This document shows, one piece after another, positions 438-13,592 of a stretch of DNA of 17,953 nucleotides. The stretch is from a bacterium. Its GTDB lineage: Bacteria; Eisenbacteria; RBG-16-71-46. Under the pieces are notes generated by a model, which was not told the DNA's origin, searched no databases, and worked only from the letters and a program-made list of their open reading frames with translations. The position numbers were made by a program, and so were the translations under genes. The number at the start of each line of letters is the position of its first letter. The stretch's first letter is position 1. Location: contig JAYWEM010000147.1 of NCBI GenBank assembly GCA_043779265.1, positions 1-17,953 of the forward strand, given 5' to 3'.

Positions 438-474
438 GCGGGGCGCGACCGTTGACGCGGTCGGAGCGCCCCGC
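438..474. repeat. Inverted repeat (9+5 bp arms, 3-nt bulge) with TTGACG as the loop
   Basis: GCGGGGCGC-GACCG (438-451), loop TTGACG (452-457), CGGTC-GGA-GCGCCCCGC (458-474). Confidence 0.75.
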
Positions 475-481
475 GTAGCAT
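452..481 (+). promoter_or_regulatory. Putative sigma70 promoter of the prolyl/pyrrolyl operon
   Basis: TTGACG (452-457)-N18-TAGCAT (476-481), about 50 nt upstream of the TTG start at 531, which has AGGAG at 519-523. Confidence 0.6.
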
Positions 482-530
482 TTCAGGCCCTGCTCAGCCC
501 TCTCCCCCGAGCCGCGTCAGGAGTCAGTCG

Positions 531-1403
531 TTGGTCTCCCCAGGCACCGCCACGCCCGGTCCCACGCGCGCCGCAGCACCCGAGACGCCCTTCTTCTTCG
601 AGTCGGACGACCGGCCCTGCTACGCCGTCTCGCACGCTGCCGCCCAGTCGCGCAAAGGCGCGCCGGTGCTCGTGCACGTGCACAGTCTCGGCATCGAGCA
701 GCTGACGCTCTATCGCCAGGAGGTTCTGGTCGCACGCGCCTCGGCGGCGCGAGGCATCCCCGCGCTGCGCTATCACTCGCGTGGCCACGGCGATTCGGCG
801 GGCGACTTCGCGGCTGTCTCGCTCGCGCGGCTGGTGACCGATGCGCGCCATGCGGCCGATGAGGCCAAGCGCCGCTCGGGTGCGACGCGCGTCGCGTGGC
901 TCGGCGTGCGCTTCGGGGCACTGGTGGCCGCTCTCGCCGCGCGCGAGCGCACCGACACCGCCGGGTTCGCGCTGTGGGAGCCGGTGCTCAAGCCGGCCGA
1001 TCACTTCCGGGCGCAGTTGCGATTCCTGCTCTTCTCGCGCATCGCGGGCGGCGTGCGGCCCGAGGCGACCGCCGATCAGTTGCTGGCGCAGGCGAGGGCG
1101 GGTGGCGAAGTGGATGTGAACGGCTACCTGTTGCATCGCGAGATCCTCGAGAGCTCCGATGGCGCCTCGCTCGCCGATGCGCTGGCGGGAACGCGTGTGC
1201 CGGTGCTGCTGGCGCAGGTGCAACAGCGCGCCAAGTTGTCGCCCGGGTTCGAGGCGCTGTGCACAGCGCTGCGCGCGGGTGGCGCGGCGGTGAGCACGGC
1301 GCTGATCCACGAGGAGCCCGGCTACCAGAACATCGCGAATCCCGCGTGGGAGTCGCCGCCTCTGACGCGAGCGATCCTGGAGTGGCTCGATGCCCTGGCG
1401 TGA
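531..1403 (+). CDS. Alpha/beta-hydrolase-fold protein, probably non-catalytic; similar to exosortase A-associated hydrolase 2 (TIGR03101-like)
   Basis: RYHSRGHGDSAGD motif of the Hydrolase_4-like fold; nucleophile elbow is W-L-G-V-R-F-G (Arg127 in place of Ser); LWEPV strand; no obvious C-terminal catalytic His motif. TTG start with AGGAG RBS. Confidence 0.8.
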   Translation: MVSPGTATPGPTRAAAPETPFFFESDDRPCYAVSHAAAQSRKGAPVLVHVHSLGIEQLTLYRQEVLVARASAARGIPALRYHSRGHGDSAGDFAAVSLARLVTDARHAADEAKRRSGATRVAWLGVRFGALVAALAARERTDTAGFALWEPVLKPADHFRAQLRFLLFSRIAGGVRPEATADQLLAQARAGGEVDVNGYLLHREILESSDGASLADALAGTRVPVLLAQVQQRAKLSPGFEALCTALRAGGAAVSTALIHEEPGYQNIANPAWESPPLTRAILEWLDALA

Positions 1404-2346
1404 GACCCCGGAACAGCTCGCGCGCGCCCGCGCCGAGGTGCCCGTCACGATCGTGACGCCGCTCGGCACGCTGTTCGGCATCTACACGCCGGCCGATCCC
1501 ACCGCGGTAGCCGCGGGTCGCTGCGCCGTGCTGTTCACGCGGCCGCGCTCGCATCGCAATCGCATGTGGGTCGAAGGGGCGAGGCGTCTGTCGCTGCAGG
1601 GTTTCTCGGCCTTCCGCTTCGACTATCACGGCTGTGGCGACAGCGAGGGCGAGAGCCACTTCAACGACCCCAACACCCCCAACCAGGCTGACGGCATCGC
1701 CGTGCTGGTGCACTTGAACGAGCACTTCGGCGAGCAGCGTTTCCTGGTGGCGGGGGCCTGCTTCGACGCTCGCACCGCGCTGAGCATGTTCGCGGGCGCC
1801 GGCGACGTCGTGGACGGCATGGTGTTCTACGCGGCGCCGGTGATGGAACTGGAGACGCTGGTCAAGGCGCACGCCGACCACAAGGATTGGCGCCACATGG
1901 CGCGCGCGCTCGGCAATGCGGAGAACTGGAAGCAGCTGGGCGATCCGGCGAGGTGGCGCTACATGGCCACGGTGCTCGGGCGTGTCGCCCGCCGCTCGAT
2001 GCCGGCCACCGCCGCCTCGACCGAGCCCGCCAACGACACGCCATTGGCCGACAGCTTCGTGAGCCACTTCCGCGCCCTGGTCGCATCGAAGTCACGGGCG
2101 CTCTTCATCTATGGTGAGGCCGATGTCGAGTTGATCTCATTCCGCGTCGCGCTCGACACGGTGTTCCAGCGGCTGAGCCCCGAGGAGCGCTCGCGCATCG
2201 AGTTCGAGTTGTGGCCGGGCGACGTGCATGGATTCCTGAACCTGCCGATGCAGCGCCGCTCGCTCGAGCGCGCCATGGACTGGTTCCAGCAGTTCCACTC
2301 CGCGGCCACGGCCGCCACGGTCGGCAGCAACGGCCGCAAGGGATGA
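1390..2346 (+). CDS. Alpha/beta-hydrolase-fold protein with Cys nucleophile (putative acyltransferase/thioesterase); similar to exosortase A-associated hydrolase 1 (TIGR03100-like)
   Basis: SHRNR motif, RFDYHGCGDSEGE, elbow G-A-C-F-D-A (Cys124, nt 1759-1761), candidate Asp in YGEAD and His in GDVHGF. Overlaps the previous gene by 14 nt; GGAG RBS at 1379-1382. Confidence 0.8.
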   Translation: MPWRETPEQLARARAEVPVTIVTPLGTLFGIYTPADPTAVAAGRCAVLFTRPRSHRNRMWVEGARRLSLQGFSAFRFDYHGCGDSEGESHFNDPNTPNQADGIAVLVHLNEHFGEQRFLVAGACFDARTALSMFAGAGDVVDGMVFYAAPVMELETLVKAHADHKDWRHMARALGNAENWKQLGDPARWRYMATVLGRVARRSMPATAASTEPANDTPLADSFVSHFRALVASKSRALFIYGEADVELISFRVALDTVFQRLSPEERSRIEFELWPGDVHGFLNLPMQRRSLERAMDWFQQFHSAATAATVGSNGRKG

Positions 2347-2356
2347 GGGGCATCGC

Positions 2357-3505
2357 GTGGATTTCGAGCTGAGCGCCGAACAGGTCGAGCTGCGAGACGC
2401 CACGCGTGCTTTCGCGCGCGAGGCCCTGAACGACGGGCTCGAGCAGCGCGATCACGAGGGCACGTTCCCTCGCGACTGCTGGAAGAAGTGCGCCGACTTC
2501 GGGCTGCTCGGGCTGCCGGTGCCGGCCGAGTACGGCGGCCAGGGGCAGGACCTGATCACCACCACCATCGCCATGGAGGCGCTGGGTTGGGGTTGCCGCG
2601 ACAACGGCCTGGTGTTCAGCCTGAACGCGCAGATGTGGGCGGTGCAGATGCCGATCGTCCACTACGGCACCGAGGAGCAGAAGCGCGAGTGGCTGCCTCG
2701 CCTCGTCTCGGGCGAGGCCATCGGCGCGCACGCGATCACCGAGCCCGATGCCGGCAGCGACGTGATGGCGCTGGGCACGCGCGCCGAACGAGTGGACGGT
2801 GGCTACCGCCTGAACGGTCAGAAGACGTTCTCGACCAACGCGCCGATCGCCGATCTGGCGCTGGCGTTCGCGTATGTGGAGCGCGGCGAGGGCAAGTCGC
2901 GGGCGCTGACGGCGTTCCTGGTGCCGAAGAGCGCCAAGGGCGTCACGTTCGGCAAGCCGATTCCCAAGATGGGACTGCGCACCTCGCCCATGGGCGAAGT
3001 GGTGTTCGAGGACTGCGTCGTGCCCGAGTCGGCGAGGCTCGGCCCCGAGGGCGCGGGCATGCGCATCTTCAACAGCGCGATGGAGTGGGAGCGCGCCTGC
3101 ATCTTCGCCGGGCACCTGGGCGCCATGGAGCGCCTGCTCGAGGACTGCATCTCGTACGCCAAGAAGCGGCGGCAGTTCGGCCAGCCGATCGCCAAGTTCG
3201 AGGGCGTCGCCGGCAAGATCGCCGACATGAAGGTGGCCATCGAGGCGGGGAGATTCCTGCTGTATCGAGTCGGCTGGCTGACCGGAAAGGGCAAGAGCGC
3301 CGTGCTCGAGTCGGCGATCGCCAAGCTGTTCGTGAGCGAGATGCACAGCCGCGCCGCGCTCGATGCGCTGCAGCTGCACGGCGGCTACGGCTACATGAAG
3401 GAGTACCCGATCGAGCGCGAGGTGCGTGACGCCCTCTCGGGCACGCTCTACTCGGGCACCTCCGAGATCCAGCGCCGCATCATCGCGCGCTGTCTGGGGC
3501 TCTAG
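2357..3505 (+). CDS. L-prolyl-[PCP] dehydrogenase (acyl-CoA dehydrogenase family; AnaB/PltE/RedW-like)
   Basis: ACAD motifs ITEPDAGSD, LNGQKTF, KMGLR, RQFGQPI, LHGGYGY. Subfamily features recalled from AnaB/PltE: GCRDNGLVFSLNA, FNSAMEWER (Glu245, IVD-type catalytic base position), YSGTSEIQR..LGL end. Adjacent to an A domain and carrier protein. Confidence 0.88.
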   Translation: MDFELSAEQVELRDATRAFAREALNDGLEQRDHEGTFPRDCWKKCADFGLLGLPVPAEYGGQGQDLITTTIAMEALGWGCRDNGLVFSLNAQMWAVQMPIVHYGTEEQKREWLPRLVSGEAIGAHAITEPDAGSDVMALGTRAERVDGGYRLNGQKTFSTNAPIADLALAFAYVERGEGKSRALTAFLVPKSAKGVTFGKPIPKMGLRTSPMGEVVFEDCVVPESARLGPEGAGMRIFNSAMEWERACIFAGHLGAMERLLEDCISYAKKRRQFGQPIAKFEGVAGKIADMKVAIEAGRFLLYRVGWLTGKGKSAVLESAIAKLFVSEMHSRAALDALQLHGGYGYMKEYPIEREVRDALSGTLYSGTSEIQRRIIARCLGL

Positions 3506-3506
3506 G

Positions 3507-5084
3507 GTGAGCGACGTGCTGCTGCCGCACCTGGTGACGCGCGCCGCGCAACGGCGGCCGCAGGCCGCCAGCGTGGTGATGGACGGCCGCACGCTCGATT
3601 ACGGCGCGCTCGAAGCGGCCTCCAACCAGTTCGCCCGCTCTCTGGTGGCGCACGGCGTGCGCCGAGGCGATCGTGTCGGCCTGTGGTTGCCCAAGTCGCC
3701 CGAGGCGATCGTCGCGCTCTACGGCATCATGAAGGCGGGCGCGGCGCACGTGCCGGTGGACCCGCAGGCGCCGCCGGCTCGGCTCGCCTACATCGCGCGC
3801 GACTGCCAGATTGCGGGGCTCGTCACGGTGTCGGATCGCGCAGCGGCGCTGGACGAGGCGTTCGGCACGCAGGCCCCGATGCGCGCGTTGTGGTTCGCCG
3901 ACCTCGGCGCGGATGCCAGCGCCCCTCGCGTCGCGGCGCTGCCCGGCGTGCCGTGGAGCGCGCTGGCCGGCGAGTCGGCCGATGCGTTCGCCTGCCCGTC
4001 GCTGGCCGACGACCTCGCCTACATCCTCTACACCTCCGGTTCGACCGGTGAGCCCAAGGGCGTGATGGTGTCGCATCGCAACGCGCGAGCGTTCACCGAC
4101 TGGGCGGCGGAGCAGTTCGCGTTGACGCACGAGGATCGCGTCGCCAACCACGCGCCGTTCCACTTCGATCTCTCGACCTTCGATCTCTACTCGAGCGCCT
4201 ACGCGGGTGCCTCGGTCCACCCGGTGTCGCCGCGCATCTTCTCGTTCCCGGCCGCGGTGGCGAAGCAATGGGCGAACGATCGGTTGAGCGTCTGGTACTG
4301 CACCCCGAGCTCGTTGATCCTGATGCTCACTCGAGGCGGCATCGACAAGCTGGATCTCTCGGCGCTCCGGGTGCTGCTGTTCGCGGGCGAGGTGTTCCCC
4401 AACAAGTACCTGCGCCAGATGATGGCGCTGGCGCCGCACGCCCGCTTCGCCAACCTCTACGGCCCCACCGAGACCAACGTGTGCACCTGGCACGAGGTGA
4501 GCGCTGCGCCCGCCGACGAGACGCCGCTGCCGATCGGCCGCGCCTGTCCCTATGACGAAGCGCTCGTGCTCGACGAAGCGCTCGCGCCCGTTCCCGAGGG
4601 CGGCGTCGGCGAGTTGTGGATCCGCGGCGCGACCGTGATGCAGGGCTACTGGGGCCGACCCGAGCGCACCGCACTCTCGCTGCAGACCATCGATGTGGCT
4701 CCCGGCCTCTCCGACCGCGCGTATCGCACCGGCGATCTGGTCCGGATGCGTCCGGACGGCGACCTGGAGTTCCTCGGCCGGCGCGACCATCAGGTGAAGA
4801 CGCGCGGCTATCGCGTGGAGTTGGGCGAGATCGAGACGCGGCTCGCCTCGCATCCGGCCGTGGATGAGGCCGTTGTCGTGGCCATCCCCGATGACGAGAT
4901 CACCAATCGGCTCAAGGCCGCTGTCGTGCTGGCGGCTGATGGGGCGGTGACCGCGGACGAGCTCAAGCAGCACTGTGCGGCGATGCTGCCGCGGTATATG
5001 GTTCCCGAGACCATCGAGTTCCACGCGCATCTCCCGCGCACGAGCAGCGGCAAAGTCGACCGCCGCGCCCTCACCGACGCCTGA
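3507..5084 (+). CDS. Stand-alone amino acid adenylation enzyme, L-proline--[PCP] ligase (AnaC/PltF/RedM-like)
   Basis: Core motifs LAYILYTSGSTGEPKG, FDLS, NLYGPTE, GELWIRG, YRTGD, GRRDHQVKTRGYRVELGEIE, LPRYMVP, SGKVDR. No C or T domain. Pocket read manually against GrsA gives DLFYLALVCK. Start reassigned to GTG at 3507, 1 nt after the upstream stop. Confidence 0.88.
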   Translation: MSDVLLPHLVTRAAQRRPQAASVVMDGRTLDYGALEAASNQFARSLVAHGVRRGDRVGLWLPKSPEAIVALYGIMKAGAAHVPVDPQAPPARLAYIARDCQIAGLVTVSDRAAALDEAFGTQAPMRALWFADLGADASAPRVAALPGVPWSALAGESADAFACPSLADDLAYILYTSGSTGEPKGVMVSHRNARAFTDWAAEQFALTHEDRVANHAPFHFDLSTFDLYSSAYAGASVHPVSPRIFSFPAAVAKQWANDRLSVWYCTPSSLILMLTRGGIDKLDLSALRVLLFAGEVFPNKYLRQMMALAPHARFANLYGPTETNVCTWHEVSAAPADETPLPIGRACPYDEALVLDEALAPVPEGGVGELWIRGATVMQGYWGRPERTALSLQTIDVAPGLSDRAYRTGDLVRMRPDGDLEFLGRRDHQVKTRGYRVELGEIETRLASHPAVDEAVVVAIPDDEITNRLKAAVVLAADGAVTADELKQHCAAMLPRYMVPETIEFHAHLPRTSSGKVDRRALTDA

Positions 5085-5101
5085 AGAGGCAAGAGAGAGT
5101 C

Positions 5102-5356
5102 ATGAGCCTGACCGCCACCGAGACCACCATCCGTCAGTTCCTCGTCGAGGACGTCTTCTACGATCAGGATCTCAACGGCTTGGGTGTCGAGGACTCGCTG
5201 CTCGCCAAGGGCCTGCTCGATTCGCTCTCGATCTTGAAGACAGTGACGTTCGTCGAGGAGAGCTTCGGCGTGACGATCCCCGACGAGGATGTGCTGCCCG
5301 ACCACTTCGAGAGCGTGCGGGCGATCGCGGCGCTGGTGGAGAAGCATCGCGCGTAG
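5102..5356 (+). CDS. Free-standing peptidyl/acyl carrier protein (AnaD/PltL/RedO-like)
   Basis: 84 aa, acidic; GLLDSL phosphopantetheine site (Ser41); FVEESFGVTIPDEDVLPDHFESV..IA typical of type II PCPs; purine-rich RBS upstream. Confidence 0.92.
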   Translation: MSLTATETTIRQFLVEDVFYDQDLNGLGVEDSLLAKGLLDSLSILKTVTFVEESFGVTIPDEDVLPDHFESVRAIAALVEKHRA

Positions 5357-5359
5357 CGT

Positions 5360-7668
5360 TCACCGCCCGCGCAGTGCCCGCACGGGTTCGTGACCCACGC
5401 CGAGCAGCATGAACGCGGCGCGGTCGCGGATCGGATAGCGCTCGCGCACCATCTGCGCGCGCATGCGGTGCAGCGCCTCGTCGCGCGGCAGGCCGGCGCG
5501 CAGCCCCGCATAGAACAGTTCCATGGCGCGCCTCGCCGCCGCGTCGCGAACCGGCCAGCGCGTGCTCAGCACGCTGCGCGTGCCGGCCAACAGGAACGCG
5601 CGCGGCAGTCCGAACACGCCCTCACCCCTCATCTCGACGCCCTCGGCCGAGGCGCAGCTCGAGAGCACGACGAGGTCGGCGGGCAGCGTCAGTTGGCCGA
5701 TGTCACGCGCGGTCAGCAGCCCGTCCGGGCCCGCCAACGCGAGGCCGGCGGCGTCCGGGTCACGCGGATCGATCCAGGTGTGCGTGGCCAGATGCAGCAC
5801 GGCATCGCGCGCACGTGCGGGCTCCACCAGCCGCGCGCGAGTCGCTTCGGCCCCCATCCACACGCGAGCACCCGGCGCGGCCACGGCCCGCGCCTCGGCC
5901 CGCGCTTGCGGCAATGGCTGGCGAGTGCGGTCGCGCACCGCGTCGCCGGCACGCTGGCCGATGGTGTCGAGCGTCGTGCGCGCGAGCGCCGGGTCCGCCC
6001 ACACGGACATGCCCGATGACGCGGCCGGTCGGCGCTGGAGCAGCAGGAGGACGCTGGCCGACGGCGTCTGGCTCAGGGGCCAGCGGTCGGCGAGGGCACG
6101 GCCATCCGGCAGCGGCAGTTCCTCCAGCGGCACATCGGTGAGCGAACGGTTGGTGACCAGGATCAGCCGGCGCGTGCTCGCCGGGATGCGGCCGAGCAGC
6201 GGATGCAGCCAGGCGCGCGCGAACGCGGTGAGTGCGGGCAGCACGCTGGCGGCGTCGCGTCCGGATTGCAGCGCGCTCCATACCTGCCGCGGCTGCGACA
6301 GCGGTTGCGCGCGCCCGAGGTTCACCGCGATCACGCTGTCGGGGGTGATCACGAACGCCAGCGCGGGATTGCGCTGGTTCTCGGTCCACTGCAGAAGCGT
6401 CGCACCGCTCTCACGCAACAGCTTCTGGAGCGACCTCAGTGATGCGAGTGAGTCGTCATCGGCGAGCTGTTCGCGCAGGGCCCAGGCGCGGCCGCGGTCG
6501 GCTGCGCGCCACGCTTCGACCGTGCGGCCCTGTGGGTGAGACAGCGCGCCCATGTGGCATACATCTCGCCGCCTCGGATCGACAGTCCGGCCTGGCTCTC
6601 GGCCGAGCCGATGCCCTCGCGCACACCCTCGAATCGCGGGATGGCGCGCGCCAGCGTGGTCTCGGCCTCAGTGATGCGCCCGAGGTTCGCGAGCGACAGC
6701 GCGAGCAGTGCGATGGAACGGGACTCCAGCAGGCGATTGCGTGCTCGGATCGCGTCCTCGCGCGCCGAGTCGGCCTGTGCGAGTGCGCGCGCATTGTCGC
6801 CCGTCTCCCAATAGTAGGAGCCCAAGGCCAGGCGGGTGCGCATCAAGTGCTGCCGGTCGCCACGGATGCGGTCCACATGCAGGGCCTCGCGGAACATGGC
6901 GAGGGCCTCGGCCGACCGATCATTGGCCATCAGCGCCCGCGCCCGCAGGCTGAGGGCGACGGCGAGTTGCAGACTCGTGCCGAAGCGGCGAGCGGCGGCC
7001 AGTCCGCTGTCGGCGTGCACCAGCGCCTCGCGTGTCCGCCCGGACGCGAGCAGCATCTGCCCCAGGCCGGTGTGGGCTTCGGCCAGCGGCACATCGCGCT
7101 TGGAGCGCTTGGCCGCCTCGAGCGCGCCACGCGCCGCGCGCTGGGCCTCGGACAATCGGCCGAGGGTGCCATAGGCGCTCGAGAGCGTGCCTCGCGCGAG
7201 CGACAGGTCGATCCAGTTCTTGCGGCGGATGCAGAGGGGTTCGACGCCGAGCAGCAACTCGATCGCCTGCTCGGGCGAGCGGTTGATCAGCTGTGAGGCG
7301 AGCAGGATGCGCGAGCGGATCTGCATGCCCTCGTCGCGTGCGCGGATGGCGAGGTGGAGCGAGCGCCGCAGATGGGCCTCGGCCTCGGCGTCGCGGGCGA
7401 GTCGGCCGCTCAATCCTCCCGCGCGATAGAGCATGAGCGACGCCAGGGAGTCCATCCCCGCTGCTTCCAGCGTATCGGTGAACGCCAAGAACTGCGGCAC
7501 CAGTCTGCTGGCATCGGTCTCGCCGCGACGAGCCTGCTCGCGCGATTCGACGAGCGCATCGGCGCGCGCCTGCAATCGCAGGCGTTCGGCCGGACCGGGC
7601 GCAGCGCGCGCCACGGTGGCTGCAAGCACCAACACGAGCCCGGCGGCCAGGACGCCGCGCGCGTTCAT
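5360..7668 (-). pseudogene. Signal-peptide + TPR + CHAT (caspase-like) protease, about 769 aa if intact, split by a 1-nt frameshift near 6533-6537 (pseudogene or sequencing error)
   Basis: 5' frame from ATG at 7668 (ATGA overlap with tatD): MNARGVLAAGLVLVLAATVARA then TPR-like helices ending GGEMYATWARCLT. The 3' frame continues QGRTVEAWRAADRGRAWALREQL and contains CHAT motifs PLPQARAEA, VLHLATH, LVVLSSCAS, GEGVFGLPRAFLLAG, STRWPVRD, FY, AAFMLLG. Confidence 0.85.
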
Positions 7669-10230: not shown

Positions 10231-10283
10231 GCCGAAGGCTGACAATTGCCGACCGCCCGTGTGATGGCGGCCGACCTGGCCCG

Positions 10284-10289
10284 TAGAAT
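10284..10289 (+). promoter_or_regulatory. Putative -10 element (TAGAAT) for a leaderless ECF sigma transcript
   Basis: TAGAAT followed 7 nt later by ATG at 10297; no Shine-Dalgarno present; -35 weak (GTGATG). Confidence 0.45.
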
Positions 10290-10296
10290 CTCCATG

Positions 10297-10842
10297 ATGG
10301 CCATCACGGATCTGATGTTCGGACGGCTCGGGGCCCTGGACCCGGCGAGAGCGGCGGACTGGGACGCCCTCTACTCGGCGCTGCTGCCGCGCGTCTACAA
10401 CTTCTTCCGGTACCGGGTGGGGCACGGACCGGAGGCCGAGGATCTGACGGCCCTGACCTTCCAGAAGGCATGGCAGGCGAGGGCGAAGTACCGACGCGAC
10501 AAGGCCGCCTTCTCGACCTGGCTGTTCACCATCGCCCGCCACGTGGCGGTCGACCACTACCGCAGTCGCCGCGTGCACCAGCCGCTGGATCGAGTGCTGG
10601 AGGTCGCGGGAGGAGCCGAGGCGGACGAGGCGTCCGTGCTCCGGTCCGACCTCGACAAGCTCGGGCGGCTGCTCGCCGATCTGCCGGAACGTGAGCGCGA
10701 GCTGATCGCACTCAAGTACGGCGCCGAACACGAGCATCGCGACATCGCCCGCATCATGGGGCTCCGTGAGAGCAACGTCGGCACGATCCTGCACCGCACC
10801 GTCGCGGCGCTGAGATCGCGCTGGCAGGAAGGAGAGCAGTGA
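10297..10842 (+). CDS. ECF RNA polymerase sigma-70 family factor
   Basis: Region 2 (LY..LLPRVYNFF..EAEDLT..TF.KAW, FSTWLFTIAR..AVDHYR) and region 4 (LPERERELIALKY..IARIMG..ESNVGTILHR). Start uncertain (10294 or 10297). Confidence 0.93.
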   Translation: MAITDLMFGRLGALDPARAADWDALYSALLPRVYNFFRYRVGHGPEAEDLTALTFQKAWQARAKYRRDKAAFSTWLFTIARHVAVDHYRSRRVHQPLDRVLEVAGGAEADEASVLRSDLDKLGRLLADLPERERELIALKYGAEHEHRDIARIMGLRESNVGTILHRTVAALRSRWQEGEQ

Positions 10843-11828
10843 CGATGGACGATCGATTCCTGCATGAGCATCGCCGCGAGCCGCGCCCCGGATTCGAGCG
10901 CGCGCTGCGTGAGAACCTGCGCGAGCAGGCGCAGGAGGCTTCGGAGCGCCGTGGCTTCCGACTGCACCCGGCATTGAGCGGCGCGCTCGCCGTCGCCTTC
11001 GTGGCCGTGTTGTTCAGTGTGCCGGCGGTACGCGCCACGGCGAGCCAGCTTTTGGATCGCTTCCGCGTGCAGAACCTGACGGCCGTGCCGTTCGATCCCG
11101 CGAGACTCGAGCGGCTCAAGGCGCTGGCGGATTCCAAGGGCGAGGGCCCAGGGCTGTTGGGCTTCGAGACCGAGGTGCTGCGCAAGCCGGGCGAGCCGCA
11201 GGTCCATCCGAGCCCGGAAGCGGCTGCTGCTGCATCCGGGCTCATCGTGCGCACGCCGTATGACCTGCCACGCGGTTTCTCGCTCGAGCGGGTCTCGGTG
11301 AGCGGGGATGCCGAGGTGCGGATGACGGCCAACACCCAGGAACTGGGCTCGATGCTCGAGCTGCTCGACCTGCGGGATGTCCGCGTTCCGAGCGAGTGGC
11401 ACGGCCGCAGCGTGACGCTGCGCGTGCCGCGCATGGTCACGATGCAGTACGTCAACGGCGAGCGTCGGGCCGAGTTCAAGCAGGCCGCCTCGCCCGAAGT
11501 GGACCTGCCGCCGGGCGCCGAGTTGGCGCAACTCGGCGAGATCGCGTTGCGGGTGCTGGGGCTCGATGCCGACGAGGCGAGGCGCACCGCCTCGCGCATC
11601 GACTGGAACAGCACGCTGCTCGTACCGGTGCCGATGGATGCGACGGCGTTCCGAGAGATCACGATCCACGGCCAGAAGGGCCTGCTGGTCGAGAGCACCA
11701 AGGCGCGGGGAAGCGGCGGCGCCAAGAGCGGCGGCCTGGTGCTGTGGACCGAGCACGGCCGGGTGTACGCGCTCGGCGGCAATATGAACGCGGGTGATCT
11801 GGTCGTGATGGCCGAGTCCGTGCGGTAG
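10839..11828 (+). CDS. Putative transmembrane anti-sigma factor with extracytoplasmic (DUF4367-like) domain
   Basis: GTGA overlap with the ECF gene; short charged N-terminus (EPRPGFERALR), one TM helix (LSGALAVAFVAVLFSVPAVRA), FRV motif, PYDLPRGF, C-terminal LVLWTEHGRVYALGG. Confidence 0.75.
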   Translation: MTMDDRFLHEHRREPRPGFERALRENLREQAQEASERRGFRLHPALSGALAVAFVAVLFSVPAVRATASQLLDRFRVQNLTAVPFDPARLERLKALADSKGEGPGLLGFETEVLRKPGEPQVHPSPEAAAAASGLIVRTPYDLPRGFSLERVSVSGDAEVRMTANTQELGSMLELLDLRDVRVPSEWHGRSVTLRVPRMVTMQYVNGERRAEFKQAASPEVDLPPGAELAQLGEIALRVLGLDADEARRTASRIDWNSTLLVPVPMDATAFREITIHGQKGLLVESTKARGSGGAKSGGLVLWTEHGRVYALGGNMNAGDLVVMAESVR

Positions 11829-11838
11829 TTTCGTCCGC

Positions 11839-12756
<918 letters not shown>

Positions 12757-12758
12757 CC

Positions 12759-13592
12759 ATGCGCGACATCCTGGTGATGGCCCACCTGACGCTGTTCGAG
12801 GCGCTGCGCCGCCGCATCCTGGTCGCGGCGCTGATCTGCGGCCTCGCGTTCCTGGTGCTGTTCGGCATCGGCATGCACTTCATCGCGGCTCAGGCGGGCT
12901 CGCAGACCGGCTCCGAGGTCGAGCGCCGCTTGGTGCTCAACCTCATCACGCTGGCCGGACTCTATGCCGTCAACTTCCTCACCGTGATGTCGGCCGTGCT
13001 GCTGCCCGTGGATACGCTCGCGGGCGAGATCGCCTCGGGCGTCACGCAGACGGTGGCCAGCAAGCCGATCCGCCGCTCGAGCATCGTGCTCGGCAAGTGG
13101 CTCGCCTATGTGGTCGTCGTGAACGGCTATCTGTTCCTGCTCGCGGGCGGCGTCGTGCTGATCTCGCGGCTGGTGTCGGGTTTCATGCTGCCCCGATTCG
13201 AACTCGGCCTGCCGCTCATGATGCTGGAGGCCGTGGTGCTCGTGTCGCTGTCGATCGCTGGCGGAACGCGATTGAGCACCGTCACCAATGGCGTCGTCGC
13301 GTTCGGGCTCTACGGCCTCGCGTTCATCGGCGGATGGGTCGAGCAGATCGGCGCGCTCGCCCACAACGACGCGGCGCGCCGCGTCGGCGTCGTGGCCAGC
13401 CTGATCATGCCCTCCGAGAGCATGTGGCAGCTCGCCGCTTCTCAGATGCAGCCGGCCCTGATGCGCGAGATGCACGCGACCCCGTTCTCGCCCGCCTCCG
13501 TGCCGAGCCCGATGATGGTGTGGTGGGCTGCGGGCTATGCGGCGGTGCTCGTGCTGATCGCGTTGCGGAGTTTCGGCAAGCGCGGGTTGTAA
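12759..13592 (+). CDS. ABC-2 type transporter permease
   Basis: About six hydrophobic helices; GEIASGVTQTVASKPIRRSSIVLGKW loop typical of ABC2_membrane permeases; 2 nt downstream of the ATPase. Confidence 0.93.
   Translation: MRDILVMAHLTLFEALRRRILVAALICGLAFLVLFGIGMHFIAAQAGSQTGSEVERRLVLNLITLAGLYAVNFLTVMSAVLLPVDTLAGEIASGVTQTVASKPIRRSSIVLGKWLAYVVVVNGYLFLLAGGVVLISRLVSGFMLPRFELGLPLMMLEAVVLVSLSIAGGTRLSTVTNGVVAFGLYGLAFIGGWVEQIGALAHNDAARRVGVVASLIMPSESMWQLAASQMQPALMREMHATPFSPASVPSPMMVWWAAGYAAVLVLIALRSFGKRGL

Follow-up and report, generated by a model that had tools for sequence, protein, structure and literature searches.

A self-contained proline-to-pyrrolyl operon with an Arg/Cys alpha/beta-fold pair in an Eisenbacteria genome: a candidate carrier-to-glycan acyl transfer system

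What becomes of a carrier-bound, proline-derived acyl group in a bacterium in which no assembly line was found to receive it? This question is raised by five genes on contig JAYWEM010000147.1 (G000:C147) of assembly GCA_043779265.1, from the Eisenbacteria lineage RBG-16-71-46. The genome covers 3.43 Mb in 195 contigs and is 92% complete; the window analysed here is the entire contig of 17,953 nucleotides (nt). The genes encode two alpha/beta-fold proteins (Ha and Hb), a dehydrogenase, a stand-alone adenylation (A) enzyme and a free peptidyl carrier protein (PCP). On a reading that we hold with about as much belief as doubt, the Ha-Hb pair would attach pyrrole-2-carbonyl to a glycan precursor that other genes supply.

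The five genes form a genuine self-contained unit (Table 1). All open reading frames (ORFs) lie on the + strand, with gaps of -14, 10, 1 and 17 nt. The left neighbour is a divergent ORF that starts at 277, and the right neighbour is a convergent ORF that ends at 5360, 3 nt off; the coupling and both flanks described in a first-pass annotation of this DNA agree with the ORF coordinates throughout. Prediction from sequence also bears out the promoter that it had assigned to the operon: the sigma-70-like site is the sole one in positions 200-700, where 0.1 would be expected from shuffled sequence. Both hexamers recur, about 930-1010 nt 5' of the second gene and with unrelated spacers, at 17 of the 19 loci compared (the window counted), and the overlap between genes 1 and 2 is likewise kept in 17 of 19. 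For the A gene the earliest in-frame start is 3426, and the start at 3507 agrees with relatives of about 525 amino acids (aa). No pathway gene is cut off at the left contig end, since this end shares 99 nt with contig C8, which completes the divergent HEAT-repeat gene and continues into rsmA. Beyond rsmA, C8 encodes a membrane protein and a 555-aa protein without assigned family, and this content ruled out further pathway genes past the end. The HEAT gene adjoins the cassette in some genera only.

The same unit is found in relatives. In a survey of 201 genomes of the phylum, a close Hb was found in 35 other genomes, all in one family (35 of its 86 genomes). By genus, the operon is present in 17 of 18 genomes of g4, in 2 of 16 of g3 and in none of 7 of g11. 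The pair travels with the trio of A enzyme, carrier and dehydrogenase: an A orthologue (58% identity or more) is present in all 35, Ha in 34, and the dehydrogenase in 32 at the threshold used. The first four genes lie in order on one contig in 24 genomes, and contig ends interrupt 7. Pair and trio are on different contigs in three of the 35, and truly apart in G014 and G189; an A orthologue without Hb occurs in two genomes, both fragmented. In G063 the pair, the A enzyme and the PCP are kept, and an SGNH gene occupies the dehydrogenase position. Because kin genomes are not independent, we take this co-inheritance as the sign of a stable unit and not as a statistic.

By sequence, the trio belongs with the type II modules for making pyrrolyl from proline. 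The best model for the A protein is the amino acid adenylation domain (399 bits, above cut-off), and its nine pocket positions are identical in all 20 aligned cassette enzymes, whereas one nonribosomal peptide synthetase (NRPS) control differed. Among solved structures, two L-proline-carrier ligases match the pocket region best; over the nine positions shown, eight agree with PltF (6O6E), seven with 7THN and four with DltA. The entry 6O6E is PltF-PltL, and PltF loads proline (PMC8857579). The code DLFYLALVCK supports the proline specificity that had been proposed, and the loading of proline on the carrier by this enzyme is a strong inference. The carrier itself belongs to the PP-binding family and matches 2MY5, 6CXT_A, PltL and PigG in the PDB. 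With the operon's dehydrogenase, prolyl-carrier dehydrogenases outrank acyl-CoA dehydrogenases in the PDB search, and the four best rows are all of the class that had been claimed: 4IRN (prolyl-acyl carrier protein (ACP) dehydrogenase, E 8e-117), 6CXT_B and two L-prolyl-PCP dehydrogenase sequences (5ZW0 among the matches). In a dehydrogenase tree of 33 rows, for which 14 pair loci were picked from a larger set, the operon enzyme falls in a clade apart from the genome's ordinary acyl-CoA dehydrogenases (support 100/100); its own clade of 11 rows (100/100) takes in L046 and L047. In these respects the trio resembles the modules PltF/PltL/PltE, PigI/PigG/PigA, Bmp4/Bmp1/Bmp3 and AnaC/AnaD/AnaB, with each protein closest to them among solved structures; the PltF-PltL and Bmp1-Bmp3 systems are treated in PMC8857579. 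The dehydrogenase, however, lies under both models' curated cut-offs (PigA, NF053553, 421.6 of 500 bits; RedW-type, NF045652, 405.5 of 650 bits).

How far would this dehydrogenase take the oxidation? We consider the pyrrole level probable from the genes that accompany homologous cassettes. A PltA-type halogenase stands 5' of the cassette in L046 and L047 (best match PltA, E 1e-102), and a second stands 5' of a more distant pair-and-trio cassette in L114 and L115. At the latter ChlB4, which we take to be a non-pyrrole halogenase, scores alike, so the class is not exclusive to pyrroles; even so, the two occurrences point to an aromatic pyrrolyl product. PltA chlorinates pyrrolyl-PltL (PMC13311259), and 6CXT_B is Bmp3, which is described as oxidising carrier-bound proline to pyrrole (PMC8857579). 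The best solved relative weighs the other way: the operon's enzyme matches 4IRN with 394 bits, against 302 and 297 for the next entries. This entry is presumably AnaB, in which oxidation stops at pyrroline. No dehydrogenase was found in G063, which also speaks for a less oxidised group. That the enzyme halts at pyrroline-5-carboxyl, or that unoxidised prolyl is transferred, nevertheless seems highly unlikely to us, given the halogenases beside homologous cassettes and the general instability of a free pyrroline acyl group unless a polyketide synthase (PKS) step is immediate.

The operon departs from these type II modules in its company, since its genome lacks a PKS, condensation domain, halogenase or KSIII-like transferase and the trio's partner is the alpha/beta pair. 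The first-pass annotation had noted the lack of such partners in the window, and the same holds for the whole genome. As to PKS, the genome searches gave one full ketosynthase (the FabF region) and six short weak hits only; no condensation domain, flavin halogenase or MBOAT protein was found in the 92% complete genome. The genome has two carriers, one AcpS-type transferase and two FabH-type proteins, of which the second, on contig C53, passes the fabH cut-off. A PKS, NRPS or halogenase partner within the genome was accordingly rejected. Ketosynthase and condensation-domain probes matched none of 38 pair loci, none of 19 trio-only loci and nothing in the window, with 7 of 8 controls matched; flanks were 4-21 kb and some loci are near-duplicates. 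By these probes the operon does not belong to a PKS/NRPS pyrrole cluster. It could still be supposed that the trio supplies a PKS/NRPS or KSIII-like transferase encoded elsewhere, perhaps in unassembled DNA, and that the pair does no more than edit mis-loaded carrier. The incomplete assembly of 195 contigs and the second FabH leave some room for this, but with FabF as sole ketosynthase, no condensation domain, only two carriers, a second FabH that is accepted by the fabH model and empty probes at the related loci, we regard it as extremely unlikely.

On residue evidence, only Hb of the pair can be catalytic. Its triad Cys124-Asp245-His280 is invariant in 22 of 22 aligned sequences, and in its predicted model (predicted local distance difference test (pLDDT) 83) Cys124 sits at the strand-helix elbow. 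In Ha the elbow reads G-V-R127-F-G, with Arg127 invariant at the nucleophile site in all 21 aligned sequences, and no catalytic or conserved His was found among them; Ha would be a pseudo-enzyme. The pair of hydrolase-like partners that had been proposed therefore stands as an alpha/beta pair, but not as two active enzymes. Among the 150 best hits of a library search with the Hb family, the Cys elbow is present in 147, and 69 are long fusions of both halves, the elbow residue of their dead half being Arg (61), His (7) or Gln (1); one fusion (P0036) carries an additional polysaccharide deacetylase. At an E limit of 1e-10 the Cys-half profile gathers 7,104 representatives, ordinary hydrolases among them, and at 1e-30 it gathers 1,538. 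For a natural fusion from a relative (P0057), the predicted fold (pLDDT 88, predicted template modelling score 0.89) has halves that align to the Ha and Hb profiles, and suggests a fixed packing of the two halves in that protein, as distinct from the window proteins. PDB searches gave no solved homologue spanning both halves, with the best alignment (266 of 614) covering one domain. Neither Ha nor Hb has a hydrophobic N-terminus by eye. From the fusions and the residues we consider it very probable that Ha and Hb are a heterodimer, with an acyl-Cys124 intermediate.

The pair had first been likened to hydrolases 1 and 2 of exosortase A loci (TIGR03100 and TIGR03101). This likeness holds for the best models, for the gene order and for the elbows: GVRFG and GACFD in the window correspond to GIRLG and GLCDA in the cut-off-passing L132 members of TIGR03101 and TIGR03100, which carry the same Arg and Cys and stand beside a carrier and a ligase. 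It does not hold for the scores, which are far under the cut-offs (Ha, 104.4 against 202.75 bits; Hb, 52.5 against 168.45 bits), for the donor, which here is proline-derived, or for a tie to exosortase. An exosortase is present in 14 of the 35 genomes with Hb and in none of 18 genomes of genus g4, 17 of which have Hb; in the window genome it sits on another contig. An exosortase locus as the required acceptor pathway was rejected on the count of 14 of 35, and with the missed cut-offs this makes the PEP-CTERM link a family resemblance and not a pathway. In the literature searched, TIGR03100 turns up in a single paper, as Bcam1334 of the Burkholderia cenocepacia biofilm polysaccharide cluster, for which only a guess is offered, a polysaccharide quality-control hydrolase (PMC3584217); no tested function for either family was found there. 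The exosortase/EpsI polysaccharide locus of the window genome (L079, on contig C150) also has deacetylase, CapA-like and GNAT genes, and a rough scan of its proteome gave a single clear PEP-CTERM-like tail.

Does the pair transfer the acyl group or hydrolyse it? The strongest reason to read it as a transferase comes from a sister lineage of the trio without the pair, where different acyltransferase-like proteins stand in for one another next to the trio. This lineage comprises 16 loci whose A enzymes are 41-56% identical; all 15 codes read are proline-like, 7 of them identical to the window's. In nine loci the neighbour of the trio is a hexapeptide acyltransferase (eight assigned by Pfam and one, truncated at a contig end, by clustering), and in four it is a membrane protein that has an SGNH-type part; one locus lies among glycosyltransferases and a flippase, and two are cut off. 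Four hexapeptide proteins scanned had NeuD/PglB, WbbJ and EpsC as best NCBIfam models, all under cut-off. The three types of partner interleave in the dehydrogenase tree, with 6 changes against a minimum of 2; L114, a pair locus, clusters there with two hexapeptide loci (support 100/98). We think it likely, from this exchange of partners, that the pair performs transfer rather than hydrolysis. Genome G098 has both cassette types, a trio with the pair (L038) and a trio with the membrane-SGNH protein (L172). An MBOAT label for the membrane partner was not upheld (no Pfam match in 5 of 5 genomes, which counts against our reading of the slot, and no PDB match) and stays a lead, with a weak DltB match (E 2e-4) and Atlas leads at 0.88. 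At L167, L168, L172, L177 and L114:15059-17713, membrane proteins that carry an SGNH domain, or are paired with one, show an MBOAT-like motif and an invariant His with no Pfam MBOAT match, and are possibly an MBOAT branch without a model.

The contrary view is that the pair is a two-part thioesterase that frees pyrrole-2-carboxylate, or a halogenated form, as a diffusible metabolite. The closest solved folds to the pair are esterases and one thioesterase, and the carrier matches 6CXT_A, that is Bmp1, which is labelled an alpha/beta hydrolase fold protein and is presumably an ACP-thioesterase. Moreover, the Ha half is fused directly after the carrier in a PKS (L048), in a PKS-NRPS (L049) and, in an A-PCP type, in 4 of 32 longer hits, and the pair directly follows NRPS genes in L121, L122, L135, L138, L149, L155 and L178. 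This is the position of a thioesterase, as in L048, L049, L121, L122, L135, L138 and L155, and it suits plain chain release equally well. On the other hand, the nucleophile of the best hits (147 of 150) is Cys and not Ser, which suits transthioesterification, for which CmaE, SyrC and GrgF are precedents with Cys. Hydrolysis needs no dedicated dead subunit, the sister trios pair with acyltransferases and not with thioesterases, and at L048 the pair has an ordinary, separate thioesterase as its neighbour. We therefore judge release as the free acid distinctly unlikely. Of the off-loading onto an acceptor encoded elsewhere that was first suggested for the pair, transfer remains the best reading, with the amendment that one subunit only would be catalytic.

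If transfer is the reaction, a glycan acceptor is suggested by genomic context. Around distant loci with pair and trio (L110, L114/L115 and L116), the genes encode glycosyltransferase, deacetylase, Asn-synthase-like and SGNH proteins. The cassette of genus g6 adjoins a sugar-transferase/glycosyltransferase cluster (L039, L040) with orthologues in the window genome at G000:C1:37-5305, and in G043, G098, G010, G063 and G099 it lies 11-19 kb from the same cluster on one contig. Six plasmid regions of relatives, read out of 59 record matches, all hold a carrier or ligase system: three are beside aminoacyl-ACP ligase/DUF1839 clusters, and three belong to polysaccharide clusters that have a carrier system no more than 10 kb away.

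Several observations weigh against a glycan. No acceptor gene is co-conserved, and within the close clade the cassette is often flanked by housekeeping genes. L107 and L046/L047 have no glycan genes nearby. The glycosyltransferase cluster on C1 and an aminotransferase on C152 are present in 63, 67 and 71 of the 86 family genomes; being near-universal they are permissive only, and were discarded as acceptor markers that are too widespread to discriminate. An aminotransferase on C42 was also discarded, since it does not track the operon (17 of 86 family genomes, 0 of 18 in g4). The same chemistry and transfer could thus end on a lipid head group, a polyamine, a small metabolite or a protein. For this speak an operon with no fixed glycan gene, with its own promoter and moving between housekeeping sites, the absence of glycan neighbours at L047 and L107, and CouN7, which passes pyrrolyl to a small-molecule substrate (PMC8748450). 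The swap-in partners, however, resemble sugar acyltransferases by their models, and the wider family occurs in polysaccharide clusters; a non-glycan acceptor is in our view unlikely.

For the favoured transfer to a glycan unit, the following sequence of steps is proposed. The genome's single AcpS-type transferase would prime the PCP and the A enzyme load L-proline, after which the flavoenzyme would oxidise prolyl-S-PCP to pyrrolyl-2-carboxyl-S-PCP. Ha, dead and with Arg at its elbow, may help carrier docking or serve as structural subunit of a heterodimeric acyltransferase, while Hb would take the acyl group on Cys124 as a thioester. Hb would then acylate a sugar unit in the cytoplasm at an amine or hydroxyl, this unit being either a nucleotide amino-sugar or a lipid-linked repeat unit, as partner swapping and genomic context suggest. 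The outcome would be an envelope polymer decorated with pyrrole-2-carbonyl, with the glycan genes elsewhere in the genome. Whether this extends further is a tentative matter that we lean slightly against accepting: bacteria may decorate surface glycans with pyrrole-2-carbonyl (halopyrrole in some lineages), and in many phyla the Arg-pseudo/Cys pair may serve as a general carrier-to-glycan acyltransferase, connecting polysaccharide synthesis with A enzymes, aminoacyl-ACP ligases, NRPS and PKS.

Stand-alone transfer has precedents. CouN7 and CloN7 have an alpha/beta fold and form a covalent intermediate. CouN7 is presented in PMC8748450 as a stand-alone enzyme that takes a pyrrole acid unit from a carrier and transfers it to a free substrate, and CmaE-type aminoacyl shuttles are presented there as well. 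The pair would resemble CouN7/CloN7 and CmaE/SyrC in their described function, the stand-alone transfer of a carrier-bound pyrrolyl or aminoacyl group, and PDB searches with the pair turned up no CouN7, CloN7 or CmaE entries. With alpha/beta-fold acyltransferases Hb shares an intact nucleophile-acid-His triad (C124/D245/H280), which Ha fails to show. CouN7/CloN7 and CmaE/SyrC are, however, single proteins in antibiotic clusters with the acceptor pathway adjoining, whereas here there are two subunits, one of them dead, and no adjoining acceptor pathway. DltA/C/B/D carry out carrier-dependent envelope acylation. Like that type, the operon would be a free-standing set of A enzyme, carrier and transferase acting on a surface polymer from other genes; unlike it, an oxidation is added, the acyl group would be aromatic, and a soluble alpha/beta heterodimer would replace the membrane transferase, with no MBOAT found in the genome.

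The view that no characterised pathway has this gene set survives in part. No paper on the set or on a pyrrole-acylated glycan was found in the literature searched, most subscription journals being outside it; the off-loading of pyrrolyl by a stand-alone transferase is already known from CouN7 (PMC8748450). By this analogy, pyrrolyl hand-off by an alpha/beta-fold enzyme has a precedent, and the new part is an Arg/Cys off-loading pair on a known module. If the proposed transfer is true, a proline-to-pyrrole module shifts from antibiotic synthesis into envelope chemistry, and the dead-plus-Cys heterodimer would be a new release module for NRPS/PKS lines seemingly without a thioesterase. The pair belongs to a large family that includes TIGR03100/TIGR03101, Bcam1334 and, in Azospirillum and Mycetohabitans, the fused hydrolase found in aminoacyl-ACP-ligase clusters; with five proteins, proline and ATP, the operon offers this family its smallest test bed, and one that is fully soluble.

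Table 1. Positions of the promoter, ribosome-binding site and five genes of the operon in the window
Feature	Coordinates	Strand	Basis
Predicted sigma-70-type promoter, -35 TTGACG / 18 nt / -10 TAGCAT	452..481	+	motif search
Ribosome-binding site AGGAG, 7 nt 5' of TTG start	519..523	+	read from sequence
Ha, alpha/beta-fold putative pseudo-enzyme (hydrolase-2-like), 290 aa	531..1403	+	TIGR03101, 104.4 bits
Hb, alpha/beta-fold putative Cys enzyme (hydrolase-1-like), 318 aa	1390..2346	+	TIGR03100, 52.5 bits
FAD-dependent prolyl-carrier dehydrogenase, 382 aa	2357..3505	+	PDB matches; PigA model 421.6 bits
Stand-alone proline adenylation enzyme, 525 aa, pocket code DLFYLALVCK	3507..5084	+	adenylation-domain model, pocket code
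Free peptidyl carrier protein, 84 aa, attachment Ser41	5102..5356	+	PP-binding model; PDB matches

Some loci of the wider family are of interest in their own right. In Azospirillum and Mycetohabitans a fused Arg/Cys protein ends a cluster of aminoacyl-ACP ligase, acyl-CoA dehydrogenase, DUF1839 and GH2 genes (L183:5323-12909, L185:5148-11256 and L187:3790-11788), and may be the off-loading step of this cluster. At L188:1-20870 and L178:4072-13191, NRPS genes, a phosphopantetheinyl transferase and the pair adjoin polysaccharide export or glycosyltransferase genes, as candidates for peptide-decorated polysaccharides. The region L114:1142-20304 combines a PltA-type halogenase, PCP, pair, dehydrogenase and proline enzyme with deacetylase, Asn-synthase-like, SGNH and membrane-SGNH genes; a halopyrrole-decorated glycan is a candidate product. 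In L107 a thiolase-like gene (5895-7391) lies directly 5' of the pair-and-trio cassette, with the carrier 2.8 kb off on the opposite strand.

Around the operon, a TPR-CHAT gene (5360-7668, - strand) is split over two frames that switch near 6530; it is a single 769-aa ORF in L042, which indicates a frameshift or an assembly error. The + strand at 10246-13592 encodes an ECF sigma factor, a 329-aa protein without assigned family and an ABC-2 transporter, and this block lies near the cassette in several relatives, apparently through synteny with tatD-metG. In three genomes a class I SAM methyltransferase gene stands directly 5' of Ha (L029:4175-5416, L032:8641-9468 and L033:11315-12184).

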